64,000 nt of DNA from an uncultured Desulfurococcaceae archaeon (GTDB taxonomy: Archaea; Thermoproteota; Thermoprotei_A; Sulfolobales; NBVN01): NCBI GenBank assembly GCA_964592745.1, contig CAZQFL010000001.1, positions 12,400-76,399 of the forward strand. Reading direction: 5' to 3'. Below are positions 844 through 60,880 of the stretch, one piece after another. The number at the start of each line of letters is the position of its first letter. Position 1 is the first letter of the stretch. A program made the translations under genes and the position numbers. The notes under the pieces were generated by a model. The model had not been told where the DNA came from and made no database searches. It saw only the letters and a list, made by a program, of their open reading frames with translations.

Positions 844-1857
844 ATGAGTAGTGAGGCAATTGTTGTTAAAGAGTTAAGAAAGAGGTATGTTACGAAGAAG
901 AGGTTAGGGTTATTTAGGTCTAAGACCGAGGTTGTTGAAGCCTTAAGGGGTATCTCCTTTCGTGTTAGATATGGTGAGGTAGTCGGGTTATTAGGACCTA
1001 ATGGTGCTGGTAAGACAACAACTATTAAGATACTCTCAACACTTCTCCTACCAGATGATGGTGAAGTATTTGTTGGGGGCTACGATGTTGTAAGGGAGGC
1101 CAACAATATCCGAAAAATTATTGGGGTTATGTTTGGTGTTGAGAAGGGTTTCTATGGCAAGTTAACTGGTAGAGAGAATCTAAAGTACTTCGCTGCTCTA
1201 TACGGATTAAGTAGCTCAATTATTGAGAAAAGAGTTAATGAGCTACTTAAATTACTTGAACTCGATAAGCTTGGGGCTTCAGATAAGTTATTTGAAGAGT
1301 ATAGCTTAGGTATGAAGGCTAGATTATCACTTGCTAGGGCATTACTGAAGGATCCACCAATACTATTACTCGATGAGCCAACACTAGGTCTAGACCCGAT
1401 AAGTGCTAGGAAAATTAGGGATTTAGTTAGGGGGTTAGCTCATAGGGAAGGTAAGGCAGTACTATACACTACACACAACATGTTTGAAGCTGAGATAGTA
1501 TGTGATAGGATCTTACTCATAAATAACGGCTTAATAGTCGCTGAAGGAACACCTAGTGAGCTAAAGTCTAGGATACCAAGGATAAGAGTTCTATCAGTAA
1601 CTATTAGGGCTACTAAAGAATCGATAACAACACTCAATAAAGTGCTCACTGAAGTACTTAATGATGTATCCGTGAGTGTTAAGGAGGTAAGTAGTGGAGT
1701 ATATGAGTTAAGACTTAAAGTTAGAAATGTTGAGGAAGTGATGAATGAGGTGATAAGGAGTATAGCTTCAAGAGGCAACGAAATAATTAATCTTAAGGTT
1801 GAGGAGCCAACACTTGAGGATGTGTTCATATATTTCACGGGTAATGTGAGAGAATGA
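844..1857 (+). CDS. ABC transporter ATP-binding protein (ABC-2 exporter type)
   Basis: Walker A GPNGAGKTT, signature-like YSLGMKARL, Walker B LLLDEPTLGLD. ATGA overlap with the next gene. Confidence 0.9.
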   Translation: MSSEAIVVKELRKRYVTKKRLGLFRSKTEVVEALRGISFRVRYGEVVGLLGPNGAGKTTTIKILSTLLLPDDGEVFVGGYDVVREANNIRKIIGVMFGVEKGFYGKLTGRENLKYFAALYGLSSSIIEKRVNELLKLLELDKLGASDKLFEEYSLGMKARLSLARALLKDPPILLLDEPTLGLDPISARKIRDLVRGLAHREGKAVLYTTHNMFEAEIVCDRILLINNGLIVAEGTPSELKSRIPRIRVLSVTIRATKESITTLNKVLTEVLNDVSVSVKEVSSGVYELRLKVRNVEEVMNEVIRSIASRGNEIINLKVEEPTLEDVFIYFTGNVRE

Positions 1858-2663
1858 CATTTCGTGAGTTACTTAAAGCTGAGGCTATCTTTGTTTACGC
1901 TGACATCTTTAGGAGGAAGGCTGTCCTATTCACATATATCGCCTTCCCTTACATACTAACAATGTTTATAGTATTGATAGGCTCATCTGTGGGGTCTTAC
2001 CAGGCATTTAAGGAGAGGTTAGGTACGGACCCAATACCATTCTTCCTAACGGCTTCCTACTTAATGATGTCTGTACTTGCAGTATCTGATGATGTACTCT
2101 GGAAACCCATTCATGATAAAATGATGGGGACGTTACCATATATACTCGTAACACATGTGAGTAAGTTACTTTACTTTATAACCATACCGATCCCTAGACT
2201 AGCATTAGTTATACTCTTAGGATTTGCATCACTCCCACCAGTATTTATCTTCTTTTACGGTATTGAGGGTGTTTACACAGTTTTTAGGATAGTACTCATG
2301 TCATTACTCTCTTCAGTACTCTACATAACGTTCTCGATACTACTTGTAGGTACGTTATACAGTATAGGTGGTGAGAGCTGGAGGATACTTAACATAGTTA
2401 GACCACTTCTGCTAATATTCTTAGGTATATATTACCCTAAATTTCTCATGCCCACAATGTTGTTTATAGTGTCATCGCTACTACCACCATCATATATCAT
2501 AGAATTAATGTATAGGTCGTTACTTAATATTATGACATCTCAAACCTACGTTCTTGAGCTTATGGGTTTAGCTATAGCTATATCTTTAATCTACGCACCA
2601 TTAGGTAGTAAAGCATTAGGTTCCTGGGAGCGTAGGAAGGTATCTAAGGGTGTTGAGGTATGA
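1854..2663 (+). CDS. ABC-2 type transporter permease
   Basis: 269 aa with multiple hydrophobic spans. 4-nt overlaps with both neighbours. Confidence 0.8.
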   Translation: MTFRELLKAEAIFVYADIFRRKAVLFTYIAFPYILTMFIVLIGSSVGSYQAFKERLGTDPIPFFLTASYLMMSVLAVSDDVLWKPIHDKMMGTLPYILVTHVSKLLYFITIPIPRLALVILLGFASLPPVFIFFYGIEGVYTVFRIVLMSLLSSVLYITFSILLVGTLYSIGGESWRILNIVRPLLLIFLGIYYPKFLMPTMLFIVSSLLPPSYIIELMYRSLLNIMTSQTYVLELMGLAIAISLIYAPLGSKALGSWERRKVSKGVEV

Positions 2664-3466
2664 GTAGGTTAGCCGTCATCAAGGCTGTATTTGAGGCTTA
2701 CTTTAAGGCTGAATTAGTTAGGGAGCATGGAGCTGTACTTGGTATTCTCTCATTATCTCTATGGCTAGCATTGTTTTTAACTCCTCTATGGTTATTTGCT
2801 CCTAAGTCTGTCAATGTCTCACTATTTGGGAGTTTTGCTTTCATAGGTATATTGATATTTGTATCATATACTATGGCCTCATGGGATTGGGGCTGGCAGT
2901 TAAGGTGGCTACTTTATCAAGGCATTCTTGAGTATGTGATAGTTAGCGGTAGAGATATTTTAATACTTTACGTGGGCATAATACCTGTTTCACTGATATG
3001 GTTAAGTTTTGTTGGGTTAGTAGCTTACGCAATAATCACTATGCTTATAGGGCCTCCATTATTAATGGTTAATGATGCTCTCCTGTTGTGTATAGGTATT
3101 ATAACCTTAATTCTTGTACTTCTATCATATGCGTTGATACTTGGTGGTACAACAATAGCTGTAGGTACTAGTGGCCCGATAGTTGAGTTCATAAGTTGGA
3201 TATTACCTATAGCAACAGGAGGTTTAACACCTCTTCAGAACTTACCTGAACCATTAAGGATTTTTGCATTATGTACACCATTCAGTTACCCAGCAGAGCT
3301 TATTAGATATGCTCTAGGATTGAGTGGTACCGTTATGGACGTTCAACTAGAGTGTCTTGTAGGGGTTCTTTACGCAATACTATTCTTCATAGCTGGTTTT
3401 ACCTACTTTAAGCTTCAGTTAAAGAGGATATTAAGGGAAGGAATTAAGTCAGTAGCAATGTATTAG
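2660..3466 (+). CDS. ABC-2 type transporter permease (second, distinct subunit)
   Basis: 268 aa polytopic membrane protein, translationally coupled to the upstream permease. Confidence 0.8.
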   Translation: MSRLAVIKAVFEAYFKAELVREHGAVLGILSLSLWLALFLTPLWLFAPKSVNVSLFGSFAFIGILIFVSYTMASWDWGWQLRWLLYQGILEYVIVSGRDILILYVGIIPVSLIWLSFVGLVAYAIITMLIGPPLLMVNDALLLCIGIITLILVLLSYALILGGTTIAVGTSGPIVEFISWILPIATGGLTPLQNLPEPLRIFALCTPFSYPAELIRYALGLSGTVMDVQLECLVGVLYAILFFIAGFTYFKLQLKRILREGIKSVAMY

Positions 3467-6328: not shown

Positions 6329-7741
6329 ATGGGGACGTGTTTTACGAGAATACACTATGTATTAATACTATCAATTACGGTATTATTAATTCTTCAGGCA
6401 ATGAGTAACGCTGTTAATGCGGTAAGCACCTATGGTCAGGTAATTGAGTATACTCTTTACCTTATTGATTACGGCTACATAGTTGTTGCTACAGATGAAA
6501 TAGCTTATTTTGAGATGCCTTTAAACTATAGCGATGGTACTCTAAATCAGACTGTCATAGTAGTTAACATAGGCGGCAATAGTTACATAAATAGATCAGG
6601 TGATAATGTTATCATTGGTTTAAAGATGTATAATCTAACTGACGCTTTCATGGTTGCTAAAATTCATGTTAAAATGATTAACTTTACCAAGGTACTTACG
6701 GAGATCATGAACAATCCTGACTTGTTTAAAAATGACTACGTAATTCCCTCAGACATTTTGAGGAAGTTCGTTAAGACCCCAGCTAAGATAGTTGATGATA
6801 CTGTTGTTAAAGATTTTGAAAAGTGGTTTAAAGAGAGGACAGGTAGGAATGTAAATGCGGTAAGTAAGGCATACTTAGCTTTATCGGCAGCTTATTTCAT
6901 TTACAAGAGTGGCTATATAAAGTACTCACCAAGTGCTCTACCTAGAACTATAGAGGATATTATAAATAGTAAGTCTGGAGACTGTGATGACATGTCTAGG
7001 GTTCTCATGAACCTCCTATGGCATTATGGAATACCAGCTAAAATAGAGTATGGTTATGTGTATTTACCCTTATATTTACCAGTACCTGTTGAAAATTCCA
7101 TAATGTACTTCAAGAATGCGGGTCCTCATGGTTATGTTGTAGCATATATACCCCCCTTAGGCTGGGTTTCATTAGATTTACTAGCAGGTGCTAGACTCAT
7201 ATATCCTGTAGTTGTTACAGGGTACGATATATCTTCTGACGTCAGTGCTGAGAGTGTTGAAGAGGCTAAGAGATTTAATAGAGTAAATATCTACTCAGAG
7301 TTAATTGAGTTAATCGATGTCGATGAATTAGATAAACTAGGCATAAATATAACTGATGATTCATCTGTACGTGAACACGCATTAAAGATACTAGAGGAGA
7401 GCATTAAGAGTCAAATAAGCAAGTATATAGTTAGTCCACGAACAATAACCTATACTCATACACAAATCAAGACAGTCGTAGTGAATAGAACAGTAACGGA
7501 AAGAATAGAAGAAAGAATTACTGAGACATTGACTACAACTTCAATAAAGACAAAGGTAGTGACAAGTGAAATAACGTATACAGTAACGAACACATTAACT
7601 ACGACAGTTACCTATACTTCAACTAGGACATTAACGTTAACTAAGGAGATAGTACCAAGCCATGTATGGTATAGTATGATAGCCCTAATTGCTATAATAA
7701 TAGCTTTAGCCCTGATAACAATTAAGTATTGTAGGAGATAG
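6329..7741 (+). CDS. surface-anchored transglutaminase-like cysteine protease domain protein
   Basis: N-terminal signal or TM segment. Cys-His-Asp motifs SGDCDDMSRVLMNLLWHYGIPAKIEYGY, GPHGYVVAY and WVSLDL. Thr-rich stalk, C-terminal TM and a basic tail (KYCRR). Confidence 0.75.
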   Translation: MGTCFTRIHYVLILSITVLLILQAMSNAVNAVSTYGQVIEYTLYLIDYGYIVVATDEIAYFEMPLNYSDGTLNQTVIVVNIGGNSYINRSGDNVIIGLKMYNLTDAFMVAKIHVKMINFTKVLTEIMNNPDLFKNDYVIPSDILRKFVKTPAKIVDDTVVKDFEKWFKERTGRNVNAVSKAYLALSAAYFIYKSGYIKYSPSALPRTIEDIINSKSGDCDDMSRVLMNLLWHYGIPAKIEYGYVYLPLYLPVPVENSIMYFKNAGPHGYVVAYIPPLGWVSLDLLAGARLIYPVVVTGYDISSDVSAESVEEAKRFNRVNIYSELIELIDVDELDKLGINITDDSSVREHALKILEESIKSQISKYIVSPRTITYTHTQIKTVVVNRTVTERIEERITETLTTTSIKTKVVTSEITYTVTNTLTTTVTYTSTRTLTLTKEIVPSHVWYSMIALIAIIIALALITIKYCRR

Positions 7742-19252: not shown

Positions 19253-19732
19253 TTGAGAAGGGCTTTTCTTAAGGTTTTCGGTAATTACTTAGTATCTCTT
19301 GTTCTTTACGGATCATATGCTAGAGGTGATGCACGTCCTGATAGCGATATTGACTTAATAGTTGTTGTTGAGGATGATTTGAGTGATAGATTAAGAGTTC
19401 ATAAGCTAATTGATGATGTTGAAGACTTACTAATGAGGGAATTAAGAGATTACTTTAAGAGCAAGGGGTTAACCCCGATACTTTCACCTTACATCCTAAC
19501 TAGGTCTCAAGCAAGAATGTTTAGACCTCTTTATATTGATGTGATTTTTGATGCTATAATACTGTATGATAAGGATGGATTCATGAGTAAGGTCTTTAAA
19601 GCGGTTAAAGAGAAATTGAAGAGCTTGGGTGCTGTTAGGAGGAAGATAGGTAAGAAGTGGGTAGTCGTTCTGAAACCTCACTACCGTTTTGGTGAGGTAA
19701 TAGATTTTGGAGGTGAATTAGTGCATGAATAA
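19253..19732 (+). CDS. minimal nucleotidyltransferase (MNT antitoxin-type)
   Basis: LYGSYARGDARPDSDIDL (GS-x9-DxD NTase motif). TTG start. Confidence 0.8.
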   Translation: MRRAFLKVFGNYLVSLVLYGSYARGDARPDSDIDLIVVVEDDLSDRLRVHKLIDDVEDLLMRELRDYFKSKGLTPILSPYILTRSQARMFRPLYIDVIFDAIILYDKDGFMSKVFKAVKEKLKSLGAVRRKIGKKWVVVLKPHYRFGEVIDFGGELVHE

Positions 19733-20128
19733 TGTAGAATTAGCCTAATCATATATCGAGGAAGCTAAGAGGAGGTTAAAGACAGCTGAGATGGCATTAT
19801 CCGAAGATGCATATGCCTACTGCATAAGGCAATCACAAGAAGCTGTAGAGCTTCTCCTTAGCCTAAGTGGTATGATGTCGGACCAGTACTTATTGAGTAT
19901 AGTGATAGATTCCCTAGATGGTTCCGTAATGAGATACCACAATTAGCTGCGATATCTAGGTGGTTAAGAAGAGAGAGGGAGCCTTCAATATATGGTGATG
20001 AAGAATTAGGACTTCCACCTAATAGGCTGTATACTAAACCATACGCCGAGAAAGCATTAGAATCAGCCAATTACGTATATCGCGTAGTTACCAAACTTCT
20101 TAATGAATTAATCTATAAAGATATGTGA
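19725..20128 (+). pseudogene. HEPN-domain gene disrupted by an in-frame TAA and a 1-nt deletion
   Basis: ATG at 19725 overlaps the MNT stop. Reads MNNVELA-TAA(19746-19748)-SYIEEAKRRLKTAEMAL...AVELLL. The frame is lost near 19860 and resumes as PKWYDVGPVLIEY...LNELIYKDM-stop at 20126-20128. Confidence 0.65.
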
Positions 20129-20233
20129 TGAATAAATCACATCGAGAGATGGTGATTTACATAACCTCATTCGTAGTTTGGATATGGGGTTCTTGCTCGT
20201 TAACGTTAATAGGGTGTTTGAGCTATAGTTTTA

Positions 20234-20689
20234 TTGAGCATGAGGCTTAAGGTTAGAGTAAGACGTGGAGTGTCCGAGATTATTTCTATCGCTTTACTCG
20301 TACTTATGGCTGTAGCCTTAGGTACGACACTATACCTCATAGCTGCTAGTAATATAGGTAACCTTTACTGGAGGCTTAAGGTTCAGAGTGATTTAGCCAT
20401 GGCTAAACTAGCCTACATACCTGTATTAGACGCATTCTACGATAATGGATTAATAACTATAGTAATCTACGTACCTGACGATCTAGACTTTAACCCATAC
20501 TTCAAGACAGCATATGTTGACGGTGTTAAAGTACCAAGTAATAACCTTGTTGAGGGCTTTAACGAGGTAGTACCCTTAGATAGTGTGCATAAGTTAGTTA
20601 TTGAGTACCCATTAAGTAGTGGTACACATTTAGTTAAGATACTTGACTCCAACGGAGCTGAAGTTGAGGTGGTGATTAGTATTGGGTAA
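20234..20689 (+). CDS. small type IV pilin-like (class III signal peptide) protein
   Basis: Basic N-terminus, then RRG/VSEIISIALLVLMAVALG, which is a prepilin-peptidase-type site plus a hydrophobic helix. 151 aa. Confidence 0.7.
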   Translation: MSMRLKVRVRRGVSEIISIALLVLMAVALGTTLYLIAASNIGNLYWRLKVQSDLAMAKLAYIPVLDAFYDNGLITIVIYVPDDLDFNPYFKTAYVDGVKVPSNNLVEGFNEVVPLDSVHKLVIEYPLSSGTHLVKILDSNGAEVEVVISIG

Positions 20690-23387
20690 GGGTGTATCAA
20701 CAATTATTGCAGCGATATTTGTCATAATGATATTTATGCTCATATTCATATATCTAGCGTACACAATGAGAAATTTCGGAGACATAGCGAATAGATTCGT
20801 AGAGATAGTCAATGAGGCAGCAACAAGGGAGAAGGAATCATTAAGAGTGACCTACGTAGTAGTCAACAGTACAGGTATGTACCTAGGAATAAGGAATGAA
20901 GGGACAGTAACATCAATCATTAAGGGGTACAGCATTAGAGACCTAAACAATAACCAGGTATGGTATGGAACATTCACAAATCCGTACGTGATACCACCAG
21001 GGAGTAGCGTAGACATACACATACCGGGAAACTACAGACAAGACGCAACATACCTAATAACGCTAGTAACTGAGGTAGGGAATGTAGTAAGGACTAAGTA
21101 CCCACAACCAGTAACTAACATAACTAAAGCGTACCTACTAAAGCAGCAACTCCAGACAATAGCGGGAGAAGGAACAGTAACATGGGCAGGTCAAGCAATA
21201 ATACCAATACTGCACAACACAACATCAAATATAACGTACATAGAAATAAACAATGAAACATTAAGTAATTCCTATATATTAAAGGATGTAGATAATGATG
21301 CAGTAACAACAATATCACAAGAACTAAATACAGTAAAAATAATACAAAATAATGCCATATACTATGATGACTTCACGACAGACCCCTTCGAAGCAGGAAG
21401 GCTTAAAACGCAAACAGGCATATCCGGCTTTGCATCCGTAAGTGTAGATTACGATGACACATTACAAGTGATATATGTAAACTTATTTGCGGCAGCGACA
21501 GAGATATTACCGCGAACTAGTGCAGCTTATGCGTTACTCTACTATGAAAATATTAGTGTAGGTTATAAGAACTCATCTAAGATTTGGATAATGTATCATA
21601 CATGGTACCAAAGAACGTTCACTTCAGGAGGATCCGCTTATGCTTATACAAATGGCTCCTCAATTTACGGTATAGATAAACTTAATTATAATCTCAATTA
21701 TCATACTTTACTCTCAGAACATACTACTTCTCCATACTATTACTTCGGCATTAAAAGTAATTATACTGGAAGTTTAAACATAACTACATTACCATCCTTA
21801 CAGCAATATCCTAGTGAGAACTACACCATAATGGTCGAGTGGCTACCTCTTAATGGAATTCATAAGGTTTACCTTTATAACTTTACTAAATCTTCGTCTC
21901 TTTACGCATTTGTGAGCTTAAGTGATATATCATCTACTAAAGGATTAATAGGATTCTTTACGTATGCTAATGCAACAGTTAAAGGAAGAGGATACGCTAT
22001 CGCATATGTATATGTTACTTGGTATTTTGATAATTTAGTTGTTTCTAGGGCCAATCCTAGGTATTTAAATGTATCTGATATTCCTTCTGGTTGGTATGTT
22101 ATTATAAGGTCTGATACCTTGGGTGGTAATTATCTTGATAGTAGGTATGATGCAGTGCGCGTGAATGATACTTTAGTTTTTGATGTGATTAGGTACCCTA
22201 TATTGAGGAATGCATCTATTGAGGTTTACGACTCCTTCGGTAACTTGGTTACTTATGAAAACTTTACTGAACCCCTTATTGGTGGTAACGTCTATAGGTA
22301 TGTTCCCTACGTTGTAAATGCTACTGTTGTTACTGAGTCTAATGTTAACGTATCTAAGCTTTATGTATGTACATACCTTACAGCTAACACCTCTGTTAAT
22401 GTTACTTTAAGTCTATATAATTTTGCTTCATCTAACTATGACACTATCTATCAGGGATTTAATGCAAATTCACTAAGCATATGTGTCTTAGTACCCCGTC
22501 ATGAGAACTACATCAACGGTACTAACAATACAATCATAAACCTGCTTATTGAGTCCTTTGTGCCCTTTACTGTCAGTATTGATATGTTAAATACTAAGAT
22601 TACTTACTGTGTTCCTGAGGTTAAAGATGTTCTTATTGTTGGTGTTGGTGATACTTCCAGAGTTGATGTTTATGAATTAGGATTTAGTGGTACTGACCTC
22701 ACATTAAGTTATGTGGAAAGCTTAAATGTTCATTCATTATTTGATGGTTCTACCGATATTACTTATGATTCTGACGTCACTATGTCTTTGATTGTTGTTA
22801 ATGGTAGTGGTGTTTATAGTGTCTCCCTCTATAGTGGTAAGTTTAGTATCATTAATGACTCTCAACCCTACTTCCCACGGTCTGATTTAGTTGGTGTTAG
22901 GGCTGAGGTCTTGGACGGTAAGTTATTGGTTGTACGTGGCTTCACTAACGGTAATGACTACTTACTCATTGATTTATCTAGTGGTGATGTGGTTGTCTAC
23001 GGTAGTTTAGGTATCAGCATTAACTGCACTAAATATTGTGTCTCAGCTAGTGATGGTTCTAATGCCTATCTACTAGTACTTAATGCCTCCATAGGTAAGC
23101 CCGTAATTATGCGTTATAGTTTAGATAGTGGTTGGGAGGTATTAACGAACTTCACAGGCTATAAGTCTACAGGTATGTGTTTCGGTAACGGATACCTATA
23201 CATAATGCTGGAGATGGGCGGGCTTTACAGAGTATCAATTAGTGATAGCTCGTATGAGTCCATAAACGTCAACCTACCATTCTATCCTAGAGGCTTTGGT
23301 GATAGGTTAGAATACTACGCTGGTAACTTAATATTCGTTAGGGACGACGACACGACTGAGGTATGGGTTATATCACCTGTAGGGTGA
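20682..23387 (+). CDS. large (901 aa) secreted, N-glycosylation-sequon-rich protein with pilin-like class III signal
   Basis: MGKG/VSTIIAAIFVIMIFMLIF. More than 25 N-x-S/T sequons by eye. The C-terminal region has repeated beta-strand-like segments. Overlaps the upstream gene by 8 nt. Confidence 0.7.
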   Translation: MGKGVSTIIAAIFVIMIFMLIFIYLAYTMRNFGDIANRFVEIVNEAATREKESLRVTYVVVNSTGMYLGIRNEGTVTSIIKGYSIRDLNNNQVWYGTFTNPYVIPPGSSVDIHIPGNYRQDATYLITLVTEVGNVVRTKYPQPVTNITKAYLLKQQLQTIAGEGTVTWAGQAIIPILHNTTSNITYIEINNETLSNSYILKDVDNDAVTTISQELNTVKIIQNNAIYYDDFTTDPFEAGRLKTQTGISGFASVSVDYDDTLQVIYVNLFAAATEILPRTSAAYALLYYENISVGYKNSSKIWIMYHTWYQRTFTSGGSAYAYTNGSSIYGIDKLNYNLNYHTLLSEHTTSPYYYFGIKSNYTGSLNITTLPSLQQYPSENYTIMVEWLPLNGIHKVYLYNFTKSSSLYAFVSLSDISSTKGLIGFFTYANATVKGRGYAIAYVYVTWYFDNLVVSRANPRYLNVSDIPSGWYVIIRSDTLGGNYLDSRYDAVRVNDTLVFDVIRYPILRNASIEVYDSFGNLVTYENFTEPLIGGNVYRYVPYVVNATVVTESNVNVSKLYVCTYLTANTSVNVTLSLYNFASSNYDTIYQGFNANSLSICVLVPRHENYINGTNNTIINLLIESFVPFTVSIDMLNTKITYCVPEVKDVLIVGVGDTSRVDVYELGFSGTDLTLSYVESLNVHSLFDGSTDITYDSDVTMSLIVVNGSGVYSVSLYSGKFSIINDSQPYFPRSDLVGVRAEVLDGKLLVVRGFTNGNDYLLIDLSSGDVVVYGSLGISINCTKYCVSASDGSNAYLLVLNASIGKPVIMRYSLDSGWEVLTNFTGYKSTGMCFGNGYLYIMLEMGGLYRVSISDSSYESINVNLPFYPRGFGDRLEYYAGNLIFVRDDDTTEVWVISPVG

Positions 23388-23412: not shown

Positions 23413-23888
23413 TTGAATAGGTCTGATGTATTTAGTAATATTGATGAACTTATGAAAATCATGGAGAATTTCGAAATAAGTAGAACTGATTAATGAGTTA
23501 CTAAGTAAACTTAGCACCGAGATAAGCTATAGAGGTATCAAAAGACTTGTGCAACTAGTCATTTCAGGCACTACTAGATCTAGGCTTAATGGTTATCTCA
23601 GCATTAAAAGCTAGGAGACCCAGTGGGTATTCCGAAGTAGGCTACATACTTGAGGATCTAGGTCTGATTAATCCCGAAGATGCTGAGTTAATGAAGGGTA
23701 TGACTGATTTAGGAAACATACTTATTCACGCTTATGCAAGAGTTGACAGGAATAAAATTATTAAGGCATCCGAGGGACTTAAAGAGGACATACCTAGAAT
23801 AGTTAGTAAAATCATGGATAGACTTGAATTCAAGAATTTAGATCCTGGAGAGTGCATGATAAATAATGATGTAATTAACACTCTATAG
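23413..23888 (+). pseudogene. DUF86-type HEPN gene with two frameshifts
   Basis: Three pieces in three frames join into a normal DUF86 sequence: ...MKIMENFEI / VELINELLSKLSTEISYRGIKRLVQLVI / QALLDLGLMVISALKARRPSGY.... The RNase motif reads GNILIH rather than RNxxxH. Confidence 0.55.
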
Positions 23889-42275: not shown

Positions 42276-44327
42276 ATGAGTAGATACTATGGAAGAGTTC
42301 TTGCACTATTGATGGTATCTATAATAATTACTTCCCTATCAATCATACCTACATTAGCCACTGAAGTGCATACTTATAAGTTCATGAAGTTTGTTAGGCT
42401 TAAGGTACCTGCTGTTTACATAAGTGAAGAGGGAATTATGTATGGAGTCTCAACAGAGTTTGTAATCGGTATTGGATGGCCTGGTGAAGGAACCACTTAC
42501 TTCTCAGCTGAACCGCTAACTCAAATTGACATGCAGGCAGCAAGTAGAATTGCTGTAATGATTGCTAGTACCTATGCTGGTGTACCCTTAAACACTTACG
42601 ACTATTTCATAAAGGTTAAATCTAAGTCCGAAGTAGTTGGTGGACCTAGTGGTAGTGGAATTACTGCAACAGCCTTTCTAGCATTACTAACTAATACTGA
42701 AATACTATCCAACGTATCAATGACGGGAATGATAGAGCCTGATGGAACCATCGGACCTGTTGGAGGTATTACTGAAAAATTGAGAGCTATGGCCAGAGAA
42801 GGTATTAAAGTATTCCTAATACCGAAAGGACAGTCAATAGTTAAGGAATTTAAGAAATATGTAGAAAATAAGACTGTAGGCAACACCATAATAATCACTG
42901 AAAGGATAATACCAGTAAAGGTTAATGTGACGGAGTTAGGACGTAAACTCGGTGTTAAAGTAATTGAGGTAGGTAACATTGTTGAGGCTTACAAGTACTT
43001 AACAGGTAAAGAGTTAAAATTACCTAGGTACATATATACATACCCTCCATGGCTTATTAAATGGTTAAGTAATTTAATCAATGAGACTTTAAGTATAGTT
43101 AAACGTAACCTAACAAATATCAGGAATGTACTTTCTGATCAAGCTCCAGAGCTACTTAAAGAAATAGAGAGTCATGTAACTAATGCTAAAAAGTTAATTG
43201 GGGAAAAAGATTACTATAGTGCTGCCTCTGAAGCATTCATATCAGCTATACTAACATCGTATGCTTCATCATTTGTGAAAGCATTAAGTGGTGGTAGCTT
43301 AAATAAGGTCATAGAAATTTTAAGAAGTGAAGTTAATAGGTATGTAGAACTTGCTAAAAAAGTGCTTGATGAATATAATGAACTATTCCTTAAGCTCTAT
43401 GAGCATGATTTAACAGACACTAAACTCCAATTAGCTATTGCTGCATATATAAGGTATAGAGAAGCAAATAAAACACTGACTACTATAAGGAATTATTCAT
43501 TTTACCCCCTATCTGTAGGCAAAGATGCATTATATATGGCAATATATGCTTATTGGAGAGCTAAATCAGCTATAAACTTCCTAAAGTTAGCATTGAACGT
43601 TAATGAAGGAAAGGAATTAAATAGAGAGGTGCTAGTAAAAGGCATAAATACATTGCTTCACTTCACCATGAGTGTTAAGGCTTACCTTGAAAGTTTAGGT
43701 GGTGAAACTTACCCAATTGATTATAAAGAGATTACTACGTTGTTAGATGAGGGTAAAGTAATTGAAGCTTCATCACTCGTCATCGAAGTGCTAGCTAATA
43801 ATGTAGCTTTAATGCATGCATACTTCAATACTCAGGAGAAGTTAGCACCGTATGCTGAAGAGGGAGCTAAGATATTAGCTGGTAGAGCTCAAGAGTTAGG
43901 GTTGACGCCTATATTACCAATAATGTACATTGAGAGAGCTGAAACTGTTAATGACTCAATAGCTAGGATAATACTTTACGAATCCTCATCAGCTTACTCA
44001 CTACTTCTAATGAACTCCATATCAAGAACTTATAATCCAGGAATTACCGTTAATCCCTTAACAAAAACCATAACTAAGACTAAGACCGTAACTTTACCTC
44101 CAATAACAAGTACTGAAACAATAATTAGGACAAAAATAGAGACAACCACATATACAAAGCCTGGTCTAACAATAACAAAGACATATACCGAAACAAGAAC
44201 TATTAGTGTGGCACCATCACTAGTGAAGCAATTAGTAGGTACAGGAGTAATTGCTATACTCTTCATAATTTTCGCAGCAGGCCTAGCTATAGGTGCTTTA
44301 ATAGGTTATAGTGTGTCGAAGAAATAG
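42276..44327 (+). CDS. surface-anchored Lon-like (S16) serine protease domain protein
   Basis: Signal anchor. Ser-Lys dyad context GGPSGSGITATAFLALL ... GPVGGITEKLRAMAREGIKVFLIPKGQ. Long helical middle domain, Thr-rich stalk and C-terminal TM. Confidence 0.7.
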   Translation: MSRYYGRVLALLMVSIIITSLSIIPTLATEVHTYKFMKFVRLKVPAVYISEEGIMYGVSTEFVIGIGWPGEGTTYFSAEPLTQIDMQAASRIAVMIASTYAGVPLNTYDYFIKVKSKSEVVGGPSGSGITATAFLALLTNTEILSNVSMTGMIEPDGTIGPVGGITEKLRAMAREGIKVFLIPKGQSIVKEFKKYVENKTVGNTIIITERIIPVKVNVTELGRKLGVKVIEVGNIVEAYKYLTGKELKLPRYIYTYPPWLIKWLSNLINETLSIVKRNLTNIRNVLSDQAPELLKEIESHVTNAKKLIGEKDYYSAASEAFISAILTSYASSFVKALSGGSLNKVIEILRSEVNRYVELAKKVLDEYNELFLKLYEHDLTDTKLQLAIAAYIRYREANKTLTTIRNYSFYPLSVGKDALYMAIYAYWRAKSAINFLKLALNVNEGKELNREVLVKGINTLLHFTMSVKAYLESLGGETYPIDYKEITTLLDEGKVIEASSLVIEVLANNVALMHAYFNTQEKLAPYAEEGAKILAGRAQELGLTPILPIMYIERAETVNDSIARIILYESSSAYSLLLMNSISRTYNPGITVNPLTKTITKTKTVTLPPITSTETIIRTKIETTTYTKPGLTITKTYTETRTISVAPSLVKQLVGTGVIAILFIIFAAGLAIGALIGYSVSKK

Positions 44328-44454: not shown

Positions 44455-45624
44455 TTGCTACTTGAAGTCGCAAGTAAGCATAGGAATGATATTATTAAGA
44501 AGATAGTTATTGTGAGGGAAAGGTATCTTGAGAATGCTGTGAAGGAGGTATGGGTAAGCACTAACATTGAAGGCAGAATGCCTCGGTCTATTGCTGGAAT
44601 TGACGGTAGTAGTGTTAAGGTTGATTTTCAAGGCTTCACACTCTATGGTATCGATGCTATAGCTATACTGTATAATGACGTTAAAGGTTTAAAGTACAGT
44701 AATTCCAAAGCCTACGCAATAGCAGACTTGGATGTCTTAATACCTCCAAGAGCTAAGGAACGTATAGACATGTATAGGGAAATTATCGAGGCAAAAACCG
44801 CTCTTATAACCATATTAGAGAATGACGTTGAAGTATTACTCATGGATGGTTCATTAAAATCCGTACTAATAACACCCTCCATAGAACCTATAGTCGTAGC
44901 TATGAATAAGGTGTCAGCAACATTTGGTGACCAAATATATTTAAAGCTTTACAACATGTTAAGTGAAAGTTTAAGGAATTATAATGAATTAAGAGAGCGC
45001 CCATTAGTAAGTAAGCTATTAGCCATGGATGAAGGTGGAATATTGACTGAAGAGGACTACTTAGCTACGGCTTTCCTTGAATATATAGAAAAGCTTGAGT
45101 CATACCGTAGACTACTACTTAAATGCTTCGAGAAAGGCACCTTACTAGCCTTCGTCTCAAAAACGGGAAGATCTCAAGCATATTTTGCCGACATAAGCAA
45201 GAAGTTACGTAGATACATACCAGCAGATATAATGGTATTTCAGAATCTTACATCAAGTTCCGGTTACTCAAAGCCTAAAGTAGATGATAAACCTTTGAAG
45301 GGGATGCCCAATATATTATCGTTAAGGGAGTTTTATGATAAGTTAAGAATAGCGGTTACCTACATCAGATTAGACGACGGAGGTCCTATACTCAAACTAG
45401 AGATACCATACGTGGGTAACGTGAGTACATTAACCATTGAAGAAGACATATTAAGGTTACTTAGCTACTTGAAGAATATATCACCTCAAGGCTATCCTTA
45501 CGTCTTATTAGAGGCCCATGAATTGTCACGTATTAGTAAAGATACCATTAATAGTATAATCTATTCTCTAGACTTAATACCGCAAAGAACTGGCAGGGAG
45601 GTGATTGAAGGTTGGATGATATAA
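44455..45624 (+). CDS. nurA: NurA 5'-3' nuclease
   Basis: IAGIDGSS catalytic Asp motif, size, and coupling to herA. Confidence 0.8.
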   Translation: MLLEVASKHRNDIIKKIVIVRERYLENAVKEVWVSTNIEGRMPRSIAGIDGSSVKVDFQGFTLYGIDAIAILYNDVKGLKYSNSKAYAIADLDVLIPPRAKERIDMYREIIEAKTALITILENDVEVLLMDGSLKSVLITPSIEPIVVAMNKVSATFGDQIYLKLYNMLSESLRNYNELRERPLVSKLLAMDEGGILTEEDYLATAFLEYIEKLESYRRLLLKCFEKGTLLAFVSKTGRSQAYFADISKKLRRYIPADIMVFQNLTSSSGYSKPKVDDKPLKGMPNILSLREFYDKLRIAVTYIRLDDGGPILKLEIPYVGNVSTLTIEEDILRLLSYLKNISPQGYPYVLLEAHELSRISKDTINSIIYSLDLIPQRTGREVIEGWMI

Positions 45625-47186
45625 GTAATTATGATTTAAGGTTATTAGGTAGGGTTATTGGTGAAACATCACATACCGTGGTTCTCTTTACAGCTAATAG
45701 ACCGCCAAGAGTAGGTGAATACGTACTTATCGAGTATGATAATGAGGACTTTGCGCTTGGTATAGTCGAGATGTCAAGAATAGGCAACCCCTTACTCACG
45801 AATAGGATGTTAAGACCTGAAGTTATTAGTAGAGCTGAGAGTTTTGGTGTAGAAAAACATGAATACATGATAGGTCAAGCAAGATTACTCTCTTGGCTCA
45901 ACACATTAATACGTGAAAGGAAAGTCGAGGCACCAAGATACCCGCCAAAACCTATGGCTAGAGTCTTTGAAGCATCAGGTAAGATCCTTAGAAAGATATT
46001 CTCATTAAATAATGATGGCGCCTGGATTAGGCTGGGAGTATTAGCTAATCATCCCGACGTACCTTTCTACGTTAATATAAACACAATAATTAGTAGACAT
46101 TTGGCTATATTAGCGATAACAGGTGCTGGTAAGAGCAATACCGTAGCTATACTCACGAGGAGGATAGTCGATGAACTTGGTGGTACAGTACTGATAATAG
46201 ATATGCATTCAGAATATGAAGGTGTTGCCGATAATGTAAATATAGTTAAGCCCAAGATAAATCCATCAAAATTGACTCTCTATGAATACTATCGTCTCCT
46301 AAACCTTGAGCCCAAAGCTAGTAAGCAACGATTATACTTTAGGAGAGCATACACATTCGCTAAGTATGTAACCTTGAAGAGACCCGAGGAATTTTTTGAT
46401 GTATTAATTAGTGAACTGGAATTTTACGTTGATAAGGGTAAGTATAGGGAGATAAGGAATGGTAAGATCGTAAGTATTGAATTTAGTTCTAGAGATAGAT
46501 CTCCAGTCATTGACCTACTAAATAAGCTCTATGATTTAAGGGATAGATATTGGGGTACGATATTAACACCTACAGCACCTATGGAACTTACGTCAGTAAT
46601 TAAACCTGGATATGCTAATGTAGTTCAACTAGGTAGTTTCGATGAGGAAGTAGCTGATGTCATAACCTCACATTACTTACGTAGAGTACTCGATGAGAGA
46701 AAGAGATTCAGGATTAGCGGAGGTAGTGAGGGCTACCCAGTAGCCCTTCTCACAGTTATTGAGGAAGCACACATTTTAGTACCTAAAGATAGGTCAACAT
46801 TAACTAAGGAGGTAGCCTCGAGAATAGCTAGGGAAGGTAGAAAGTTCGGTGTGGGTTTATGCTTAGTTAGTCAGAGACCTAAGAACGTTGACGATAATGC
46901 ACTCTCACAAACGAATAATAAGATAATACTAAGGTTAGTTGAGCCTAGCGATCAAAGATACGTGCAGGCCGCTAGTGAAACACTATCCGATGAGCTTTTA
47001 GGGCTCTTGCCATCTTTAAACGTAGGTGAAGCAGTAGTTCTAGGTCTCATGACCCCGCTACCAGCTGTTGTTAAAATTGATAGAGCTAAAGGGAAAATCG
47101 AAGGAGGTGATGTTAAAGCATTAGAGGAGTGGAGAAGGTGGCGTAATAGAAATGATAGAGATCTATATGACGATTTAGGTATATAA
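45612..47186 (+). CDS. herA: HerA hexameric DNA helicase/translocase
   Basis: Walker A AITGAGKSNT, Walker B VIEEAH, arginine-finger region SQRP. Overlaps nurA by 13 nt. Confidence 0.9.
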   Translation: MDDISNYDLRLLGRVIGETSHTVVLFTANRPPRVGEYVLIEYDNEDFALGIVEMSRIGNPLLTNRMLRPEVISRAESFGVEKHEYMIGQARLLSWLNTLIRERKVEAPRYPPKPMARVFEASGKILRKIFSLNNDGAWIRLGVLANHPDVPFYVNINTIISRHLAILAITGAGKSNTVAILTRRIVDELGGTVLIIDMHSEYEGVADNVNIVKPKINPSKLTLYEYYRLLNLEPKASKQRLYFRRAYTFAKYVTLKRPEEFFDVLISELEFYVDKGKYREIRNGKIVSIEFSSRDRSPVIDLLNKLYDLRDRYWGTILTPTAPMELTSVIKPGYANVVQLGSFDEEVADVITSHYLRRVLDERKRFRISGGSEGYPVALLTVIEEAHILVPKDRSTLTKEVASRIAREGRKFGVGLCLVSQRPKNVDDNALSQTNNKIILRLVEPSDQRYVQAASETLSDELLGLLPSLNVGEAVVLGLMTPLPAVVKIDRAKGKIEGGDVKALEEWRRWRNRNDRDLYDDLGI

Positions 47187-47244
47187 CTAGGTAAATACCG
47201 ACCTTTAGTTAGTACCATCGTAGTTTAAAATAATTGTATTAACC

Positions 47245-50085
47245 CTAATCACTAACTTCTCTAACCTTTGAATATATGTCTCTTGTGACCTCATATACGG
47301 TATCAGCAGCATCTCTTACTTCCTCATGATGCGTGACAACGATTAACTGAGGTATTAAGCCGCCACCTCTGAACTTCTTAAATATTTCAATCATTTGTTT
47401 TCTTCTTTCTTCATCAAGGAATATTGTTGGTTCATCAAGTATTAGGAACCCAACTCTACCTTTGAATACCACCTGATGTAGCGCTAATAATAAGGCTATT
47501 GATGTAGCTATGAGTTCACCACCACTTAATCTACCTATACTAGCTTCCATACGATCTGATACTAAAACTATGTCTAAGGTCTCCTCATTTATCCTAACAT
47601 CTGAGTAGGATAAGTTAAAGTATTCTAGGTACTCCTTCATTAAGTTCTCCAGGGATGAGATTAGTTCTCTACGTAGTATTCTTGGTACTCCATCCTTATG
47701 ATAAATATTATTCCTGATCCATAGAAGTACAGATATTTTAAGCCAAGCCCTTCTGAGTTCATCGATATCGTAGTTTAAGTACTCTAGTTCAGATTTTAAG
47801 TCTTCAGATCTTGTTTTAAGCCATTTAATTCTGTCTTCAATTCTTACCTTTTCATCTCTGATGGCTCTCCACTCATTCTCAACTTTACTTAATTCATCAC
47901 ATACTCTCTTGTAGTCTTTGACTCTTTCATCTAATAATTTAAGTTCCTCCTCGATAGATCTTAATTTTCTCATCTTATCTTCATATTCTTTCTTGAGGCT
48001 TTCTAACTCTCTCATTAATTCATCGCGTTGTTTAATCTTTAATTCAATTTCCTTAACCTTCCTCTCAGCTTCTTTAGCTATTATTAAGGCTTTTTCTAAG
48101 TCATTAGTTCCCATGACATTACTTATCCTTGTTAATAATGTACTTAATTCATTTTCAAGTGTATTGATATCATCTTTAAGCTTTTTAATTTCACCTTCAA
48201 GATTCTTAAGTGCATTCTCATTAATACCTTCACTTAGAAGTCTTTCATACTCTTCAAGATCTCTGATAACTAACTCCTTAGCACCAACTAGCCTTAATAG
48301 TTCATCCTTTCTTCTCCTTAAATCCTCTAATTCCTTACTTAAACTATCGTACTTGAGCCTTAAATTATGAATTTCATCCTTCATTCTAATAGTTATTTCT
48401 TCCTCCTTGAGTACGTCCTTAACTAGTATTTCCAATTCTATGAGATATTGAATATCTGCTTCAAGACTTTCTCTAGCTTCACTGAGTCTGGATAATTCAT
48501 TACTTAACCTATTAAGTCTCTCATTATAGTTCTTTAACTCCTTATTTAACTTCTCAATAATGTTCCTCCTACGTTCCTCACTTAATGGTTGTTCACATAG
48601 GGGGCACTTACCTCCATTTCCTGCTTGGCTAATGATCTCTAACTTATCTTTAATATCGTTAATAAAGCCTCTCAATAATTGGAGTTCACCATAGACACTA
48701 TTGTATTTTGCATTAATTTCATCTAACTCCTTTCTCAATGATGCTATACTTTTCTTAATGGCTATTAATGCTTCATTCAATGATTGTACATCTACTTTAA
48801 GAAGTTCAGATACCCTGCTTAGTACGCTTTCAGTTCTACGTCTAAATTCTGAAATCTTAGATTCCTTACTTACAATTTCGTTCTTAATTGTGTTTAATAC
48901 TGATTCTTTAGTTTTAATTTCTTCATCTATCTTTTTAATAGCCTCCTCAACATTCCTTATTGACAATACATACTTTTTCACTTCACTTAAGTCACCATAC
49001 CTACTCCTTAATTCATTGAGTTTAGCAAGATTCCTGTTCATTATCTCATACTCCTTCAATTTAGCATTTAATAATGACTTCTTACTCTCAAGTATGTTCT
49101 TAATATTTATAGCTCTCAATACATCATCATGAAGTAAAGCCTTACTTTTTAATTCATTTATGGATTTACTCTCCTTCTCTAATTTCTTAATTACCTCATC
49201 AACTTCCTTGATCTTACTTCTTAGTCTCTCTATATCAGTACGTAAACTTACTTGTGTATTCTCTAATTCATCCTTCCTACCAGTAATCCTACTTAATTCA
49301 TCCTTCTTTAACCTCAATTCTCTAACTTTAGCTTCAAGATATGACTCCTTCTTACTTACTTCGTTTAACTTCTTGCTCAATTCCCTTAACTCATTGGCAT
49401 AACTGTCTAATTCCTTCTTAATCCTCTCTGCTTCATTAATTAACGTTGAGTACATCTCTCTTATATTGTTTAAGCTTTGCTTTCTTACATTGAGTATCTG
49501 AGTACCAAATTTCTTAGTTTTAACTCTAATCTCGATTTTATCCATATTATCATAAGCCTTCTCGTAAGCTTCGAGACCTAATAATTGATCTATTAATTCC
49601 TTTCTCTTAGCTTGGGGTAATGTCAGTAGTTTACTAATCTCACCTTGAGGTACTATAGCTATTGTTTCAATAATTCTTCTCAAAGCAGTTTCAGAAACTC
49701 CGAAGAGTTCCGTTATCACCTTCTTGACCTCATTAGTACTTAAGTAGGTCTTACCACCAATCCTCACTACGGTATCGGAGAATGTCTTGCCAAACCTGCT
49801 CTGTCTTCTCTCAATGACTACCTCAGTACCACCAACGTCTAGCCATAGTTTCACGTAAGCTTCGTTACTTTTAGATATCTCATTAATTATTACGTCCTTC
49901 CTCCTACCCCTACCTTCACCTCTCAGGACCTCCCCTGTCAATGCGTAATATATAGCCTCAACAATGCTGCTCTTACCTGCACCATTAGGCCCTATTAGTG
50001 CTGTCACTCCTTTATCAAATTCTATGATGGTCTCTTTATGAGAGATGAAGTTCCTTAAATAAACTCTCCTTATGGTTATGACCAT
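47245..50085 (-). CDS. rad50: Rad50 ATPase
   Basis: GPNGAGKSS, long coiled coil with zinc hook CPLC, signature LSGGE, Walker B LILDEPT. Confidence 0.95.
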   Translation of the reverse strand: MVITIRRVYLRNFISHKETIIEFDKGVTALIGPNGAGKSSIVEAIYYALTGEVLRGEGRGRRKDVIINEISKSNEAYVKLWLDVGGTEVVIERRQSRFGKTFSDTVVRIGGKTYLSTNEVKKVITELFGVSETALRRIIETIAIVPQGEISKLLTLPQAKRKELIDQLLGLEAYEKAYDNMDKIEIRVKTKKFGTQILNVRKQSLNNIREMYSTLINEAERIKKELDSYANELRELSKKLNEVSKKESYLEAKVRELRLKKDELSRITGRKDELENTQVSLRTDIERLRSKIKEVDEVIKKLEKESKSINELKSKALLHDDVLRAINIKNILESKKSLLNAKLKEYEIMNRNLAKLNELRSRYGDLSEVKKYVLSIRNVEEAIKKIDEEIKTKESVLNTIKNEIVSKESKISEFRRRTESVLSRVSELLKVDVQSLNEALIAIKKSIASLRKELDEINAKYNSVYGELQLLRGFINDIKDKLEIISQAGNGGKCPLCEQPLSEERRRNIIEKLNKELKNYNERLNRLSNELSRLSEARESLEADIQYLIELEILVKDVLKEEEITIRMKDEIHNLRLKYDSLSKELEDLRRRKDELLRLVGAKELVIRDLEEYERLLSEGINENALKNLEGEIKKLKDDINTLENELSTLLTRISNVMGTNDLEKALIIAKEAERKVKEIELKIKQRDELMRELESLKKEYEDKMRKLRSIEEELKLLDERVKDYKRVCDELSKVENEWRAIRDEKVRIEDRIKWLKTRSEDLKSELEYLNYDIDELRRAWLKISVLLWIRNNIYHKDGVPRILRRELISSLENLMKEYLEYFNLSYSDVRINEETLDIVLVSDRMEASIGRLSGGELIATSIALLLALHQVVFKGRVGFLILDEPTIFLDEERRKQMIEIFKKFRGGGLIPQLIVVTHHEEVRDAADTVYEVTRDIYSKVREVSD

Positions 50086-51446: not shown

Positions 51447-51573
51447 CCCCACTAATGAAGACTCTACAACTAGACTTATTAATATAAGTTTAAAAAGGTA
51501 TGGGTAGTTAAGATAGAGCATATTACTAAGAATGAGGTATTTCAACAATTAAAAAGTCTCAATACTAGATTAA

Positions 51574-56369: not shown

Positions 56370-56702
56370 TTACTCCTTACCTAGCATCTTCTTAAGCTCC
56401 TTTATTCTTTCTTCAACACTCTTTAATTCATCTTGTAAATCTCTTAGATCCTCCTCAAGAGCTTTCTTATAGTCTTCAAGCATAGCTAATTCCTCCTCAG
56501 GAGTTTGCGGTGGTGGAGGTGGTGGCGGATAGTAATAATATGGTGGGTATGGATAGTATTGCGGTGCCTGTTGCTGACTCTGAGTAGGCTGCTGCTGTGA
56601 TTGTGGTGGCTGTGGTTGATAGTAGTAATATGGTGGAGGCAGAGGTGGCATGAAGTACATCATTCTTCTAAAGAGCCTGAACCACCAACTCACACTGTTC
56701 AC
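56370..56702 (-). CDS. Pro/Tyr/Gln-rich small protein with C-terminal coiled coil (DUF5320-like tail)
   Basis: 110 aa: WWFRLFRR, PPLPPPYYYYQPQPPQSQQQ...YYPYPPYYYYPPPPPPP, then EEELAMLEDYKKALEEDLRDLQDELKSVEERIKELKK. Confidence 0.6.
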   Translation of the reverse strand: MNSVSWWFRLFRRMMYFMPPLPPPYYYYQPQPPQSQQQPTQSQQQAPQYYPYPPYYYYPPPPPPPQTPEEELAMLEDYKKALEEDLRDLQDELKSVEERIKELKKMLGKE

Positions 56703-60724: not shown

Positions 60725-60880
60725 TAGTGGTTGCCCGCGCCCGTGAGTTAGGTTATTTTAGCTACTTCGGATATTTGTGATTAGTTCGGGCACGGGCTTT
60801 CCTTCATCGGGTTCGGGGGTTTCATCTCCTTCGAGGGCTTTCGGGGTCTCCACGGAACCATGAGACCCCACATCCCGGGT
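60725..60880 (-). ncRNA. possible TnpB-associated omega/right-end RNA scaffold
   Basis: GC-rich, strongly structured 3' end of tnpB in an AT-rich genome. Stems GGGGTCTC (60843-60850) / GAGACCCC (60862-60869) and GCCCGTG (60739-60745) / CACGGGC (60791-60797). Confidence 0.35.

Follow-up and report, generated by a model that had tools for sequence, protein, structure and literature searches.

A small pilin and a giant modular pilin encoded by a conserved gene pair of hyperthermophilic archaea: a candidate tip adhesin complex

Introduction

Streptococcus sanguinis has a modular lectin pilin, PilC, which is bound and stabilised by PilA, a small minor pilin, and the complex of the two has been modelled at the pilus tip (Shahin 2023, PMC9934059). 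Modular pilins are thought to polymerise via their pilin module, with the tip as the only position that accommodates them, and the survey that describes them covers bacteria only (Raynaud 2021, PMC8179133). How archaeal pili recognise their targets is largely unknown, and large 'adhesin-like' proteins have so far been predicted only from gene neighbourhoods. Here we analyse a pair of overlapping genes in a stretch of 64,000 nucleotides (nt) from an uncultured Desulfurococcaceae archaeon (contig CAZQFL010000001.1, positions 12,400 to 76,399). The first gene encodes a small pilin and the second a modular pilin of 901 amino acids (aa). The whole stretch is referred to as the window and all positions are counted from its first letter.

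Most archaea carry pilin genes outside their type IV pilus (T4P) operons, either as singletons or as tandems, and the pilins encoded there probably work in trans with ATPase/TadC pairs (Makarova et al. 2016, PMC4858521). The same study links DUF2341 to PilY-type tip adhesins and lists three clade-4 T4P ATPases for Hyperthermus butylicus in its supplement. A solved archaeal pilin of comparable size is the 144-aa T4P subunit of Pyrobaculum calidifontis, whose structure was determined in the filament (PDB 8FK7; PMC10334743).

Results

Pilin homology of the two proteins

The small pilin gene occupies positions 20240..20689 of the plus strand and encodes 149 aa from ATG 20240. An alternative TTG start is found at 20234 (open reading frame (ORF) 20234..20689). 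The ATG is more likely to be the true start, as the resulting 149 aa equal the length of the closest homologues (P0008-P0010). The large gene follows on the same strand at 20682..23387, starts with TTG and encodes 901 aa with 28 N-x-S/T sequons. Both proteins show the features of class III signal proteins, namely a short, basic leader ending in Gly and then ~20 hydrophobic residues. The N-terminus of the small protein reads MRLKVRVRRG/VSEIISIALLVLMAVALG, with a cleavage-type site RRG/VSE and a hydrophobic helix after it, and that of the large protein reads MGKG/VSTIIAAIFVIMIFMLIF, with the cleavage-type site GKG/VST. Both fit the pattern [KRDE][GA][ALIFQMVED][ILMVTAS] plus a hydrophobic stretch, which we take to be the FlaFind-type motif, and in a six-frame scan of the window the pair were the sole ORFs with an N-terminus of this class. 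Across the family the motif [KR][GA]/[VIL][SG] is recurrent. An earlier interpretation made from the letters of the window (the sequence-only reading) had proposed class III-type signals on both proteins as well as an 8-nt overlap of their genes, and we can confirm both: the overlap is exactly 8 nt, between the TTG start at 20682-20684 and the TAA stop at 20687-20689. What it overlooked is a whole pilin module inside the large protein that is paralogous to the small protein.

The family models hardly reveal this relationship. In the NCBIfam scan the small protein reached 20.2 bits on TIGR02537 (archaellin/type IV pilin N-terminal domain), a marginal match given the cut-off of 20, and there was no match to this model for the large protein. 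The Pfam scan recognised neither protein, with no match to Pilin_N (PF07790) either, and PADLOC and PHROGs returned nothing for the pair. The homology shows more clearly in profiles built from three alignments: nine orthologues of the small partner (A3), 35 sequences of the large family (A2) and the N-terminal 140-180 residues of the large family (A4). Profile A3 matched 8FK7 with an E-value of 1.1e-6 across residues 4-139, i.e. over the full length. The first ~150 positions of A2 matched the same chain, again with an E-value of 1.1e-6, and 8FK7 was the only solved structure significantly matched by both proteins. Comparing A3 directly to A4 with hhalign gave a probability of 97.3% (E 2e-11, 117 columns). 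From these matches it follows that the large protein opens with a complete pilin module, a paralogue of the small protein encoded upstream. Both are type IV pilin-type proteins and mutual paralogues. The lollipop fold of pilins (a long alpha-1 helix and a beta-sandwich) was recovered by the A3 and A2 profiles and by the structure model of the large protein discussed below. For the small protein, which consists of the hydrophobic helix and a beta domain of ~100 aa and has no sequons, the fold is predicted from its sequence profile.

Tests for three described families were negative, and membership of the BasB and PilY1 families was rejected. On the BasB model NF053670 the large protein scored 15.4 bits against a cut-off of 230 (E 0.014, residues 4-114 only). 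No ArlF/ArlG (FlaF/FlaG) chain appeared in the profile searches of the PDB at E<=10, and the window contains no archaellum genes. For the PilY1/PilC tip adhesins there was no match to PF05567/IPR008707 and no PilY1 among the top 50 Foldseek hits in the PDB, and the large protein has a pilin module.

Domain architecture of the large protein

We modelled the large protein with AlphaFold2 (AF2). The mean predicted local distance difference test (pLDDT) score was 83.2 when 35 diverse relatives were supplied, compared to 54 with seven sequences. The model places the pilin module at residues 1-140 (20682..21101), with the leader MGKG, the alpha-1 helix at 5-51 and the beta-sandwich at 54-140, in accordance with Foldseek and the profiles. 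Foldseek aligned the model to 8fk7_A with a target TM score of 0.69 and a root mean square deviation of 3.6 Å over 137 columns at 23% identity. The next part, residues 148-455 (21123..22046), is a middle beta domain which contains a conserved AGEGTVTWAG strand and a loop of low confidence at 318-375. It is probably a ConA/LamG-like jelly-roll, though this fold assignment is weak: one of 24 relatives matches Laminin_G_3 (E 0.0012) and LamG-like proteins are among the BFVD hits. The middle domain is also the most variable part of the large family. Two immunoglobulin (Ig)-like beta-sandwich domains are predicted at residues 458-535 and 536-640 (22053..22601) with pLDDT values of ~90-95, and both are recovered across the family by domain-specific hidden Markov models (HMMs). 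The C-terminal residues 641-901 (22602..23384) are modelled as a beta-propeller of ~24 strands and thus of ~six blades, for which Foldseek returned generic BamB, WD40 and Kelch propellers from the PDB with E-values of 1e-7 to 1e-5. The propeller ends in the family signature PFYPxGxGDRLEYYxGxLxFVRxDxTxExWxI. G831 and D874, both located in its C-terminal part, are the only invariant residues of the 35-sequence alignment.

As modelled, the large protein is a modular pilin, in which the pilin module carries a passenger of ~760 residues made of a jelly-roll-like domain, two Ig-like domains and a ~six-bladed propeller. It corresponds to a modular type IV pilin in the sense of Raynaud et al. 2021, i.e. 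a pilin module with extra modules, here four further domains. The most conserved piece of the large gene is a segment of 65 nt (21158-21222) at the junction of pilin module and passenger, which encodes the AGEGTVTWAG strand. Its DNA is ~83% identical to loci whose proteins are only ~30% identical overall.

The number of sequons sets the large protein apart. Across 2000 composition-matched shuffles we obtained 12.3 +/- 3.1 sequons with a maximum of 23, compared to the 28 observed. The density is 3.1 per 100 aa, whereas 21 other large ORFs of the window range from 0 to 1.49; those presumed to be cytoplasmic stay below 0.9 and the two highest values (1.2-1.5) belong to predicted secreted proteins. 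For the 33 full-length family members the density is 1.3-4.0 per 100 aa. The excess and the family-wide density mark the large protein as an extracellular surface glycoprotein, with N-glycosylation predicted from the sequons. The sequence-only reading had counted more than 25 sequons by eye and had described the C-terminal third as beta-rich and possibly propeller-like; the count and the structure prediction (AF2 and Foldseek) agree with it on both points.

A passenger of this kind could also belong to an extracellular enzyme or to a structural protein associated with the S-layer, for which the pilin-like end would be an anchor or export signal only and the small protein an unrelated neighbour. 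Glycosidases and other secreted enzymes often contain propellers and jelly-rolls, the Foldseek hits include tetrathionate hydrolase and glutaminyl cyclase, and the middle domain together with an Ig-like domain is also found in ~500-aa proteins with ordinary N-termini. Against this, the N-terminal 140 residues make up a whole pilin module and are more than a signal. Furthermore Pfam and NCBIfam detect no enzyme family and only G831 and D874 are invariant. The small partner is a paralogue, and its coupling to the large gene was seen at every locus, whichever of the two proteins the search started from. We regard an enzyme or S-layer protein as quite improbable.

Pairing and distribution of the family

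With a word-index homologue search, no more than 7-8 large-protein relatives and 3 small-protein relatives were retrieved, even with the 35-sequence profile. An exhaustive profile search for the large family returned 308 cluster representatives at E<=1e-3, with 42 at E<=1e-30. We built HMMs of the individual domains and applied them to 158 retrieved proteins. The full architecture was present in 33 clusters. In 18 more clusters the pilin module and the propeller were kept and the middle was different, in some cases (e.g. P0049) with DUF2341. This domain occurred in the passenger or variable middle of P0037, P0049, P0063 and the orthologue from locus L021. As the middle is swapped while the pilin module and the propeller are kept, the family combines a conserved frame with a variable cassette. 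The middle plus the first Ig-like domain was found alone in 56 clusters of ~500-aa proteins behind other N-termini (among P0043-P0155). This separate jelly-roll and Ig module mostly follows ordinary signal or transmembrane (TM) N-termini, a few proteins have pilin-like leaders such as MRGQSEVIAALL, and there is no Pfam model for it.

Members of the large family were found in metagenome-assembled genomes of Desulfurococcales, in H. butylicus (Hbut_0141), in Ignisphaera aggregans, in Fervidicoccaceae and on unassigned metagenome contigs, where the relatives from Ignisphaera and Fervidicoccaceae were found as single proteins. No Pfam or InterPro model covers the family.

In every locus reached via the large protein a gene for a pilin of 140-168 aa is located directly upstream, overlapping or at most 14 nt away, and its product starts with [RK][GAS]/[VI]SE[IL]. 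These loci include L001, L003, L004, L006, L008-L012, L014, L015 and L016, the last being Hbut_0140/0141 of H. butylicus. For the reverse direction we scanned metagenome contigs with a five-sequence subset of the small-protein alignment, since A3 itself was too divergent. Seven loci were detected, and all five with continuing DNA carry the N-domain of the large family in the next ORF. The pairing of the small and the large gene is obligate and the two make up a conserved operon.

Within the last part of the small gene there is a Shine-Dalgarno-like GAGGTGGTGAT at 20666..20676, located 6-16 nt 5' of the TTG of the large gene. With the 8-nt overlap this is an arrangement for translational coupling and suggests that the two genes are coupled in this way, with GAGGTGGTGAT as the putative ribosome signal. 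A candidate TATA box, TTAATAGGG (20206..20214, plus strand), which includes the TATA-like TTAATA at 20206-20211, is found ~30 nt 5' of ATG 20240; if it is real, the mRNA of the operon would be leaderless. Further upstream, ~100 nt 5' of the small pilin start, there is a palindrome ATGTGAT-GAATAA-ATCACAT at 20123-20142 with perfect 7-nt arms and a 6-nt spacer, a candidate regulator-binding site for the operon.

The neighbours of the pair vary by lineage, and most of them are housekeeping genes, e.g. those for ECF transporters, ribosomal proteins, SRP54, OMP decarboxylase and subunits of the Mrp antiporter. In at least four recognisable lineages and on several unassigned contigs the pair was found in differing surroundings. 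In L021 it lies 4.6 kb from a 626-aa T2SSE ATPase (PF00437, E 3.9e-23; 1481-3361, minus strand), and the large protein of this locus is 1251 aa long with DUF2341 and Kelch motifs (Kelch_1). Positions 1-8000 of L021 hold a compact T4P-like cluster next to the pair. Besides the ATPase it comprises a third pilin of 179 aa (KRKG/VSPIIS), an Lrp-type regulator and four small ORFs that are hydrophobic at the N-terminus. A polytopic membrane protein beside the ATPase had no T2SSF match and is therefore not called a platform protein here. NTPase_I-T is encoded near the pair in L021 and in L001/L003. Directly 3' of Hbut_0141 (L016, 13021-14955) we found a gene for a 644-aa, sequon-rich and largely coiled-coil secreted protein with no Pfam match. 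Next comes a 626-aa multi-CBS protein, which has a similar counterpart behind the pair in L010.

In ~12 of the ~13 lineages no T4P ATPase or platform is encoded next to the pair. This would be expected if the two proteins formed a membrane-anchored surface complex and no filament, with the paired beta-sandwiches as a short stalk similar to ArlF/ArlG or the bindosome. The N-terminal helix, processed or not, would then sit in the cytoplasmic membrane and the stalk would hold the jelly-roll and the propeller at the S-layer or further out, where they would serve as receptor or adhesin. The translational coupling, which suggests co-production, and the weak likeness of the large protein to BasB over residues 4-114 (E 0.014) are in line with such a complex, and class III-signal binding proteins have been proposed to functionalise type IV filament (TFF) machineries (Sivabalasarma & Albers 2026). 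However, the best match in structure and sequence, 8FK7, is a bona fide filament subunit. ArlF/ArlG did not appear even at E<=10, BasB reached 15 bits of the 230 required, and the bindosome itself needs a T4P-type ATPase and platform. We thus regard an anchored complex as rather unlikely, though it deserves to be kept in mind.

Genomic surroundings

We screened the 64-kb window for Walker-A motifs and TM segments and ran Pfam on the ATPases and polytopic membrane proteins. There was no T2SSE ATPase, no TadC/FlaJ platform and no A24 peptidase. The Walker-A proteins are an ABC ATPase, Rad50 and ArsA, and the set of polytopic membrane proteins consists of CstA, a Na/H exchanger, a purine-type permease and ABC permeases. 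The sequence-only reading was hence right that pilus ATPase, platform and peptidase are absent from the window. Its term 'orphan' for the pair is true as well but describes an ordinary situation, since most archaea carry stand-alone pilin genes (PMC4858521).

The same reading saw the pair bracketed by HEPN/MNT modules and therefore as part of an accessory island. Upstream of the pair there is indeed an intact MNT nucleotidyltransferase gene at 19253-19732 (PF01909, E 1.2e-11; PADLOC PDC-S09). The 51-aa ORF after it (19791-19946) matched neither HEPN nor any other family, and the HEPN partner may have decayed. Downstream, a HepT-like gene (23589-23888) covers only positions 47-113 of the 120 profile positions, beginning with the first residue of the gene, and no MNT partner was found beside it. 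It is probably a frameshifted or truncated toxin gene. A 26-aa ORF in another frame (23413-23493) lies upstream of it. An adjacent pair of intact MNT and HEPN genes, as in a HEPN/MNT (HepT/MntA) module, is found on neither flank, so what is left of the proposed bracket is an MNT gene without HEPN on one side and an unpaired piece of HepT on the other. Apart from the window, only L004, a collinear relative with 90.5% identity, has these toxin-antitoxin genes beside the pair.

An accessory island would mean that the pair was acquired horizontally as orphan pilins and is tied to no pilus. The distances of 500 nt to the MNT gene and 200 nt to the HepT fragment, together with a split TnpB-like gene elsewhere in the window, could be taken as traces of such an event. 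The composition shows no anomaly: the GC content of the locus is 0.365-0.369 and equals that of its surroundings (~0.37 throughout the AT-rich window). Housekeeping genes are located on both sides, with PGK, a GAPDH-type dehydrogenase, an aminotransferase and CorA upstream and a periplasmic-binding-type protein and aldehyde:ferredoxin oxidoreductases (AOR) downstream. The pair is conserved in varied neighbourhoods and occurs in Desulfurococcales, in Hyperthermus and on unassigned contigs without toxin-antitoxin neighbours. As PADLOC and PHROGs were also empty for the pair and the HepT gene is truncated and unpaired, we have abandoned the island interpretation almost entirely.

Some other features of the window were noted. 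The split TnpB/Cas12f-like gene (60758-61879, minus strand) consists of two ORFs, with TNB and RuvC-like domains in the 233-aa part and no match for the 135-aa upstream part, and is probably a decayed IS200/IS605-type element. A DNA-repair cluster at 44455-51548, confirmed by Pfam, has nurA-herA on the plus strand and rad50-mre11 divergently on the minus strand. Two further proteins are predicted to be secreted: a transglutaminase-core protein with 7 sequons (6329-7741) and a protein of 683 aa (42276-44327) in which a signal-like N-terminus precedes a Lon_C (S16) protease domain. Finally, a 110-aa ORF at 56370-56702 (minus strand) has an N-terminal half that is extremely rich in Pro, Gln and Tyr (PPLPPPYYYYQPQPPQSQQQ...) and a C-terminal coiled coil weakly similar to DUF5320 and prefoldin.

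Discussion

Proposed assembly and function

We lean, by a modest degree, towards the following interpretation: the pair is an archaeal modular-pilin tip adhesin complex which, similar to PilA-PilC of S. sanguinis, is assembled in trans by T4P machinery encoded elsewhere in the genome. The sequence-only reading had already suggested a tip adhesin or a subunit of a cell-surface structure, and among the roles considered a tip adhesin fits best. Both prepilins would be inserted into the membrane via their class III signal and cut after the Gly (RRG/VSE and GKG/VST) by the PibD-type prepilin peptidase of the genome. A type IV pilus ATPase and platform encoded elsewhere would then assemble them. The large protein would be the first subunit and sit at the tip, as a passenger of ~760 aa is too bulky for the shaft, and the paralogous small pilin would pack directly beneath it, be it as a dedicated adaptor or as the subunit of the shaft. 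In the end the passenger would attach to a ligand, with glycans or surfaces as the probable targets. Leader cleavage, assembly into a filament, location at the tip and adhesion are predicted properties of the pair. Three observations speak for this interpretation: the T2SSE ATPase near the pair in L021, the three clade-4 T4P ATPases of H. butylicus, in which the pair is also present, and the occurrence of DUF2341 in the passenger of some relatives.

For the role of the small protein there are arguments on both sides. An excess of the small over the large product is favoured by the similarity to a major pilin, by the weaker TTG start of the large gene and by a rule of thumb according to which pilins encoded alone are mostly major ones. 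A dedicated partner, in contrast, is favoured by the strict one-to-one pairing of the genes. Another lead comes from the residue at position +3, which is Glu in 13 of 14 orthologues of the small partner and acidic in none of the large relatives checked. The tip pseudopilin GspK lacks the Glu5 of bacterial pilins. By analogy, the distribution of Glu+3 would fit an order with the large protein at the tip and the small one below it, and we offer this as a lead only.

Several observations weigh against a tip adhesin complex. Machinery is encoded near the pair in only one of ~13 lineages (L021), so that it is mainly homology that ties the family to a T4P machine. In its strict form, as given above, the FlaFind-type motif is present in only 37 of 65 large relatives, the remaining ones being near-variants with G at +2 or a basic residue at -3. 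In ArlF/ArlG, archaea also possess proteins with a pilin-like N-terminus and a beta-sandwich that work as a membrane-anchored complex outside the filament. The assignment of the middle domain to the lectins is weak. Lastly, the relatives are named 'hypothetical' or, as in Ignisphaera aggregans, 'DUF2341 domain-containing' in their sources, and our literature search found no paper that mentions Hbut_0140/0141.

A more far-reaching and improbable interpretation is that the pair is no accessory to a known pilus at all but a self-sufficient, vertically inherited surface organelle of Desulfurococcales-type archaea, in which the small pilin would form a short shaft and the large protein its cap. If this were true, the swappable middle module would set the ligand specificity, be it for cell-cell or cell-mineral recognition or as a virus receptor. 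No archaeal tip-adhesin system would have been defined before it, and the solution represented by bacterial PilA-PilC/PilY1 would have been invented independently.

While the tip adhesin complex that we favour would not astonish a specialist, it offers a defined and tractable candidate for target recognition by archaeal pili. The family is a concrete one, in which a pilin module is joined to a binding cassette that varies and to a propeller that is conserved, and it is always accompanied by a dedicated small pilin. An orthologous pair, Hbut_0140/0141, is available in the named and completely sequenced strain H. butylicus DSM 5456. The family also shows that the 'modular pilin' strategy catalogued for bacteria is present in hyperthermophilic archaea, where it was missed due to the lack of a covering Pfam or InterPro model. 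Both the large family and the separate jelly-roll-plus-Ig module (~56 clusters) merit family models.

Comparison with known systems

The P. calidifontis pilin 8FK7 resembles the small protein in size (144 vs 149 aa), and a leader with G at its end, an alpha-1 helix and a beta-sandwich are shared features. Unlike the pair, this major pilin has its gene in a T4P locus that includes a KaiC-type ATPase; it has no passenger domains and shows an identity of ~23%. The predicted archaeal PilY-like/DUF2341 adhesins, i.e. arCOG03508 in Methanococci (Makarova 2016, PMC4858521) and the 4A/4AB adhesin (Sivabalasarma & Albers 2026), are likewise large secreted proteins with a proposed location at the tip. 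Their genes, however, are located inside T4P loci, and the protein of the window matches neither DUF2341 nor PilY1 (PF05567).

The Sulfolobus bindosome (BasABC and sugar-binding proteins) also combines small pilin-like proteins with large class III-signal surface glycoproteins, and its substrates are encoded away from basEF. In contrast to the pair described here, its cargo consists of ABC-type solute-binding proteins without a full pilin beta-domain and without a jelly-roll and propeller. CofB/TcpB of type IVb pili and GspK of the type II secretion system (T2SS) pseudopilus have a pilin module with extra beta/alpha domains, are located at the tip and act with small partner pilins (PMC8179133). 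They are bacterial, much smaller, lack a propeller and are encoded within the operon of their machinery, and the tests that we ran detected no homology.

The closest likeness is to PilA-PilC (and PilB) of S. sanguinis, where a small pilin is combined with a modular pilin bearing a grafted binding module (for PilC a ConA-like lectin), the protein is confined to the tip by its bulky passenger and the partner stabilises the modular pilin. This likeness is architectural, with no sequence homology shown. The streptococcal proteins are bacterial, have the N-methylation motif IPR012902, are encoded inside the pil locus and carry single modules of a few hundred residues. The pair of the window is archaeal, predicted to be N-glycosylated and encoded away from the machinery, and its four-domain passenger of ~760 aa ends in a propeller. 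Pilins with a class III signal, stand-alone pilin genes and predicted adhesins in archaeal T4P loci are already known (Makarova 2016; Sivabalasarma & Albers 2026), as are the bacterial modular pilins. What appears undescribed is a conserved family of giant modular pilins in archaea which has a conserved propeller and a swappable middle, is obligatorily paired with a paralogous small pilin and is encoded apart from the machinery.

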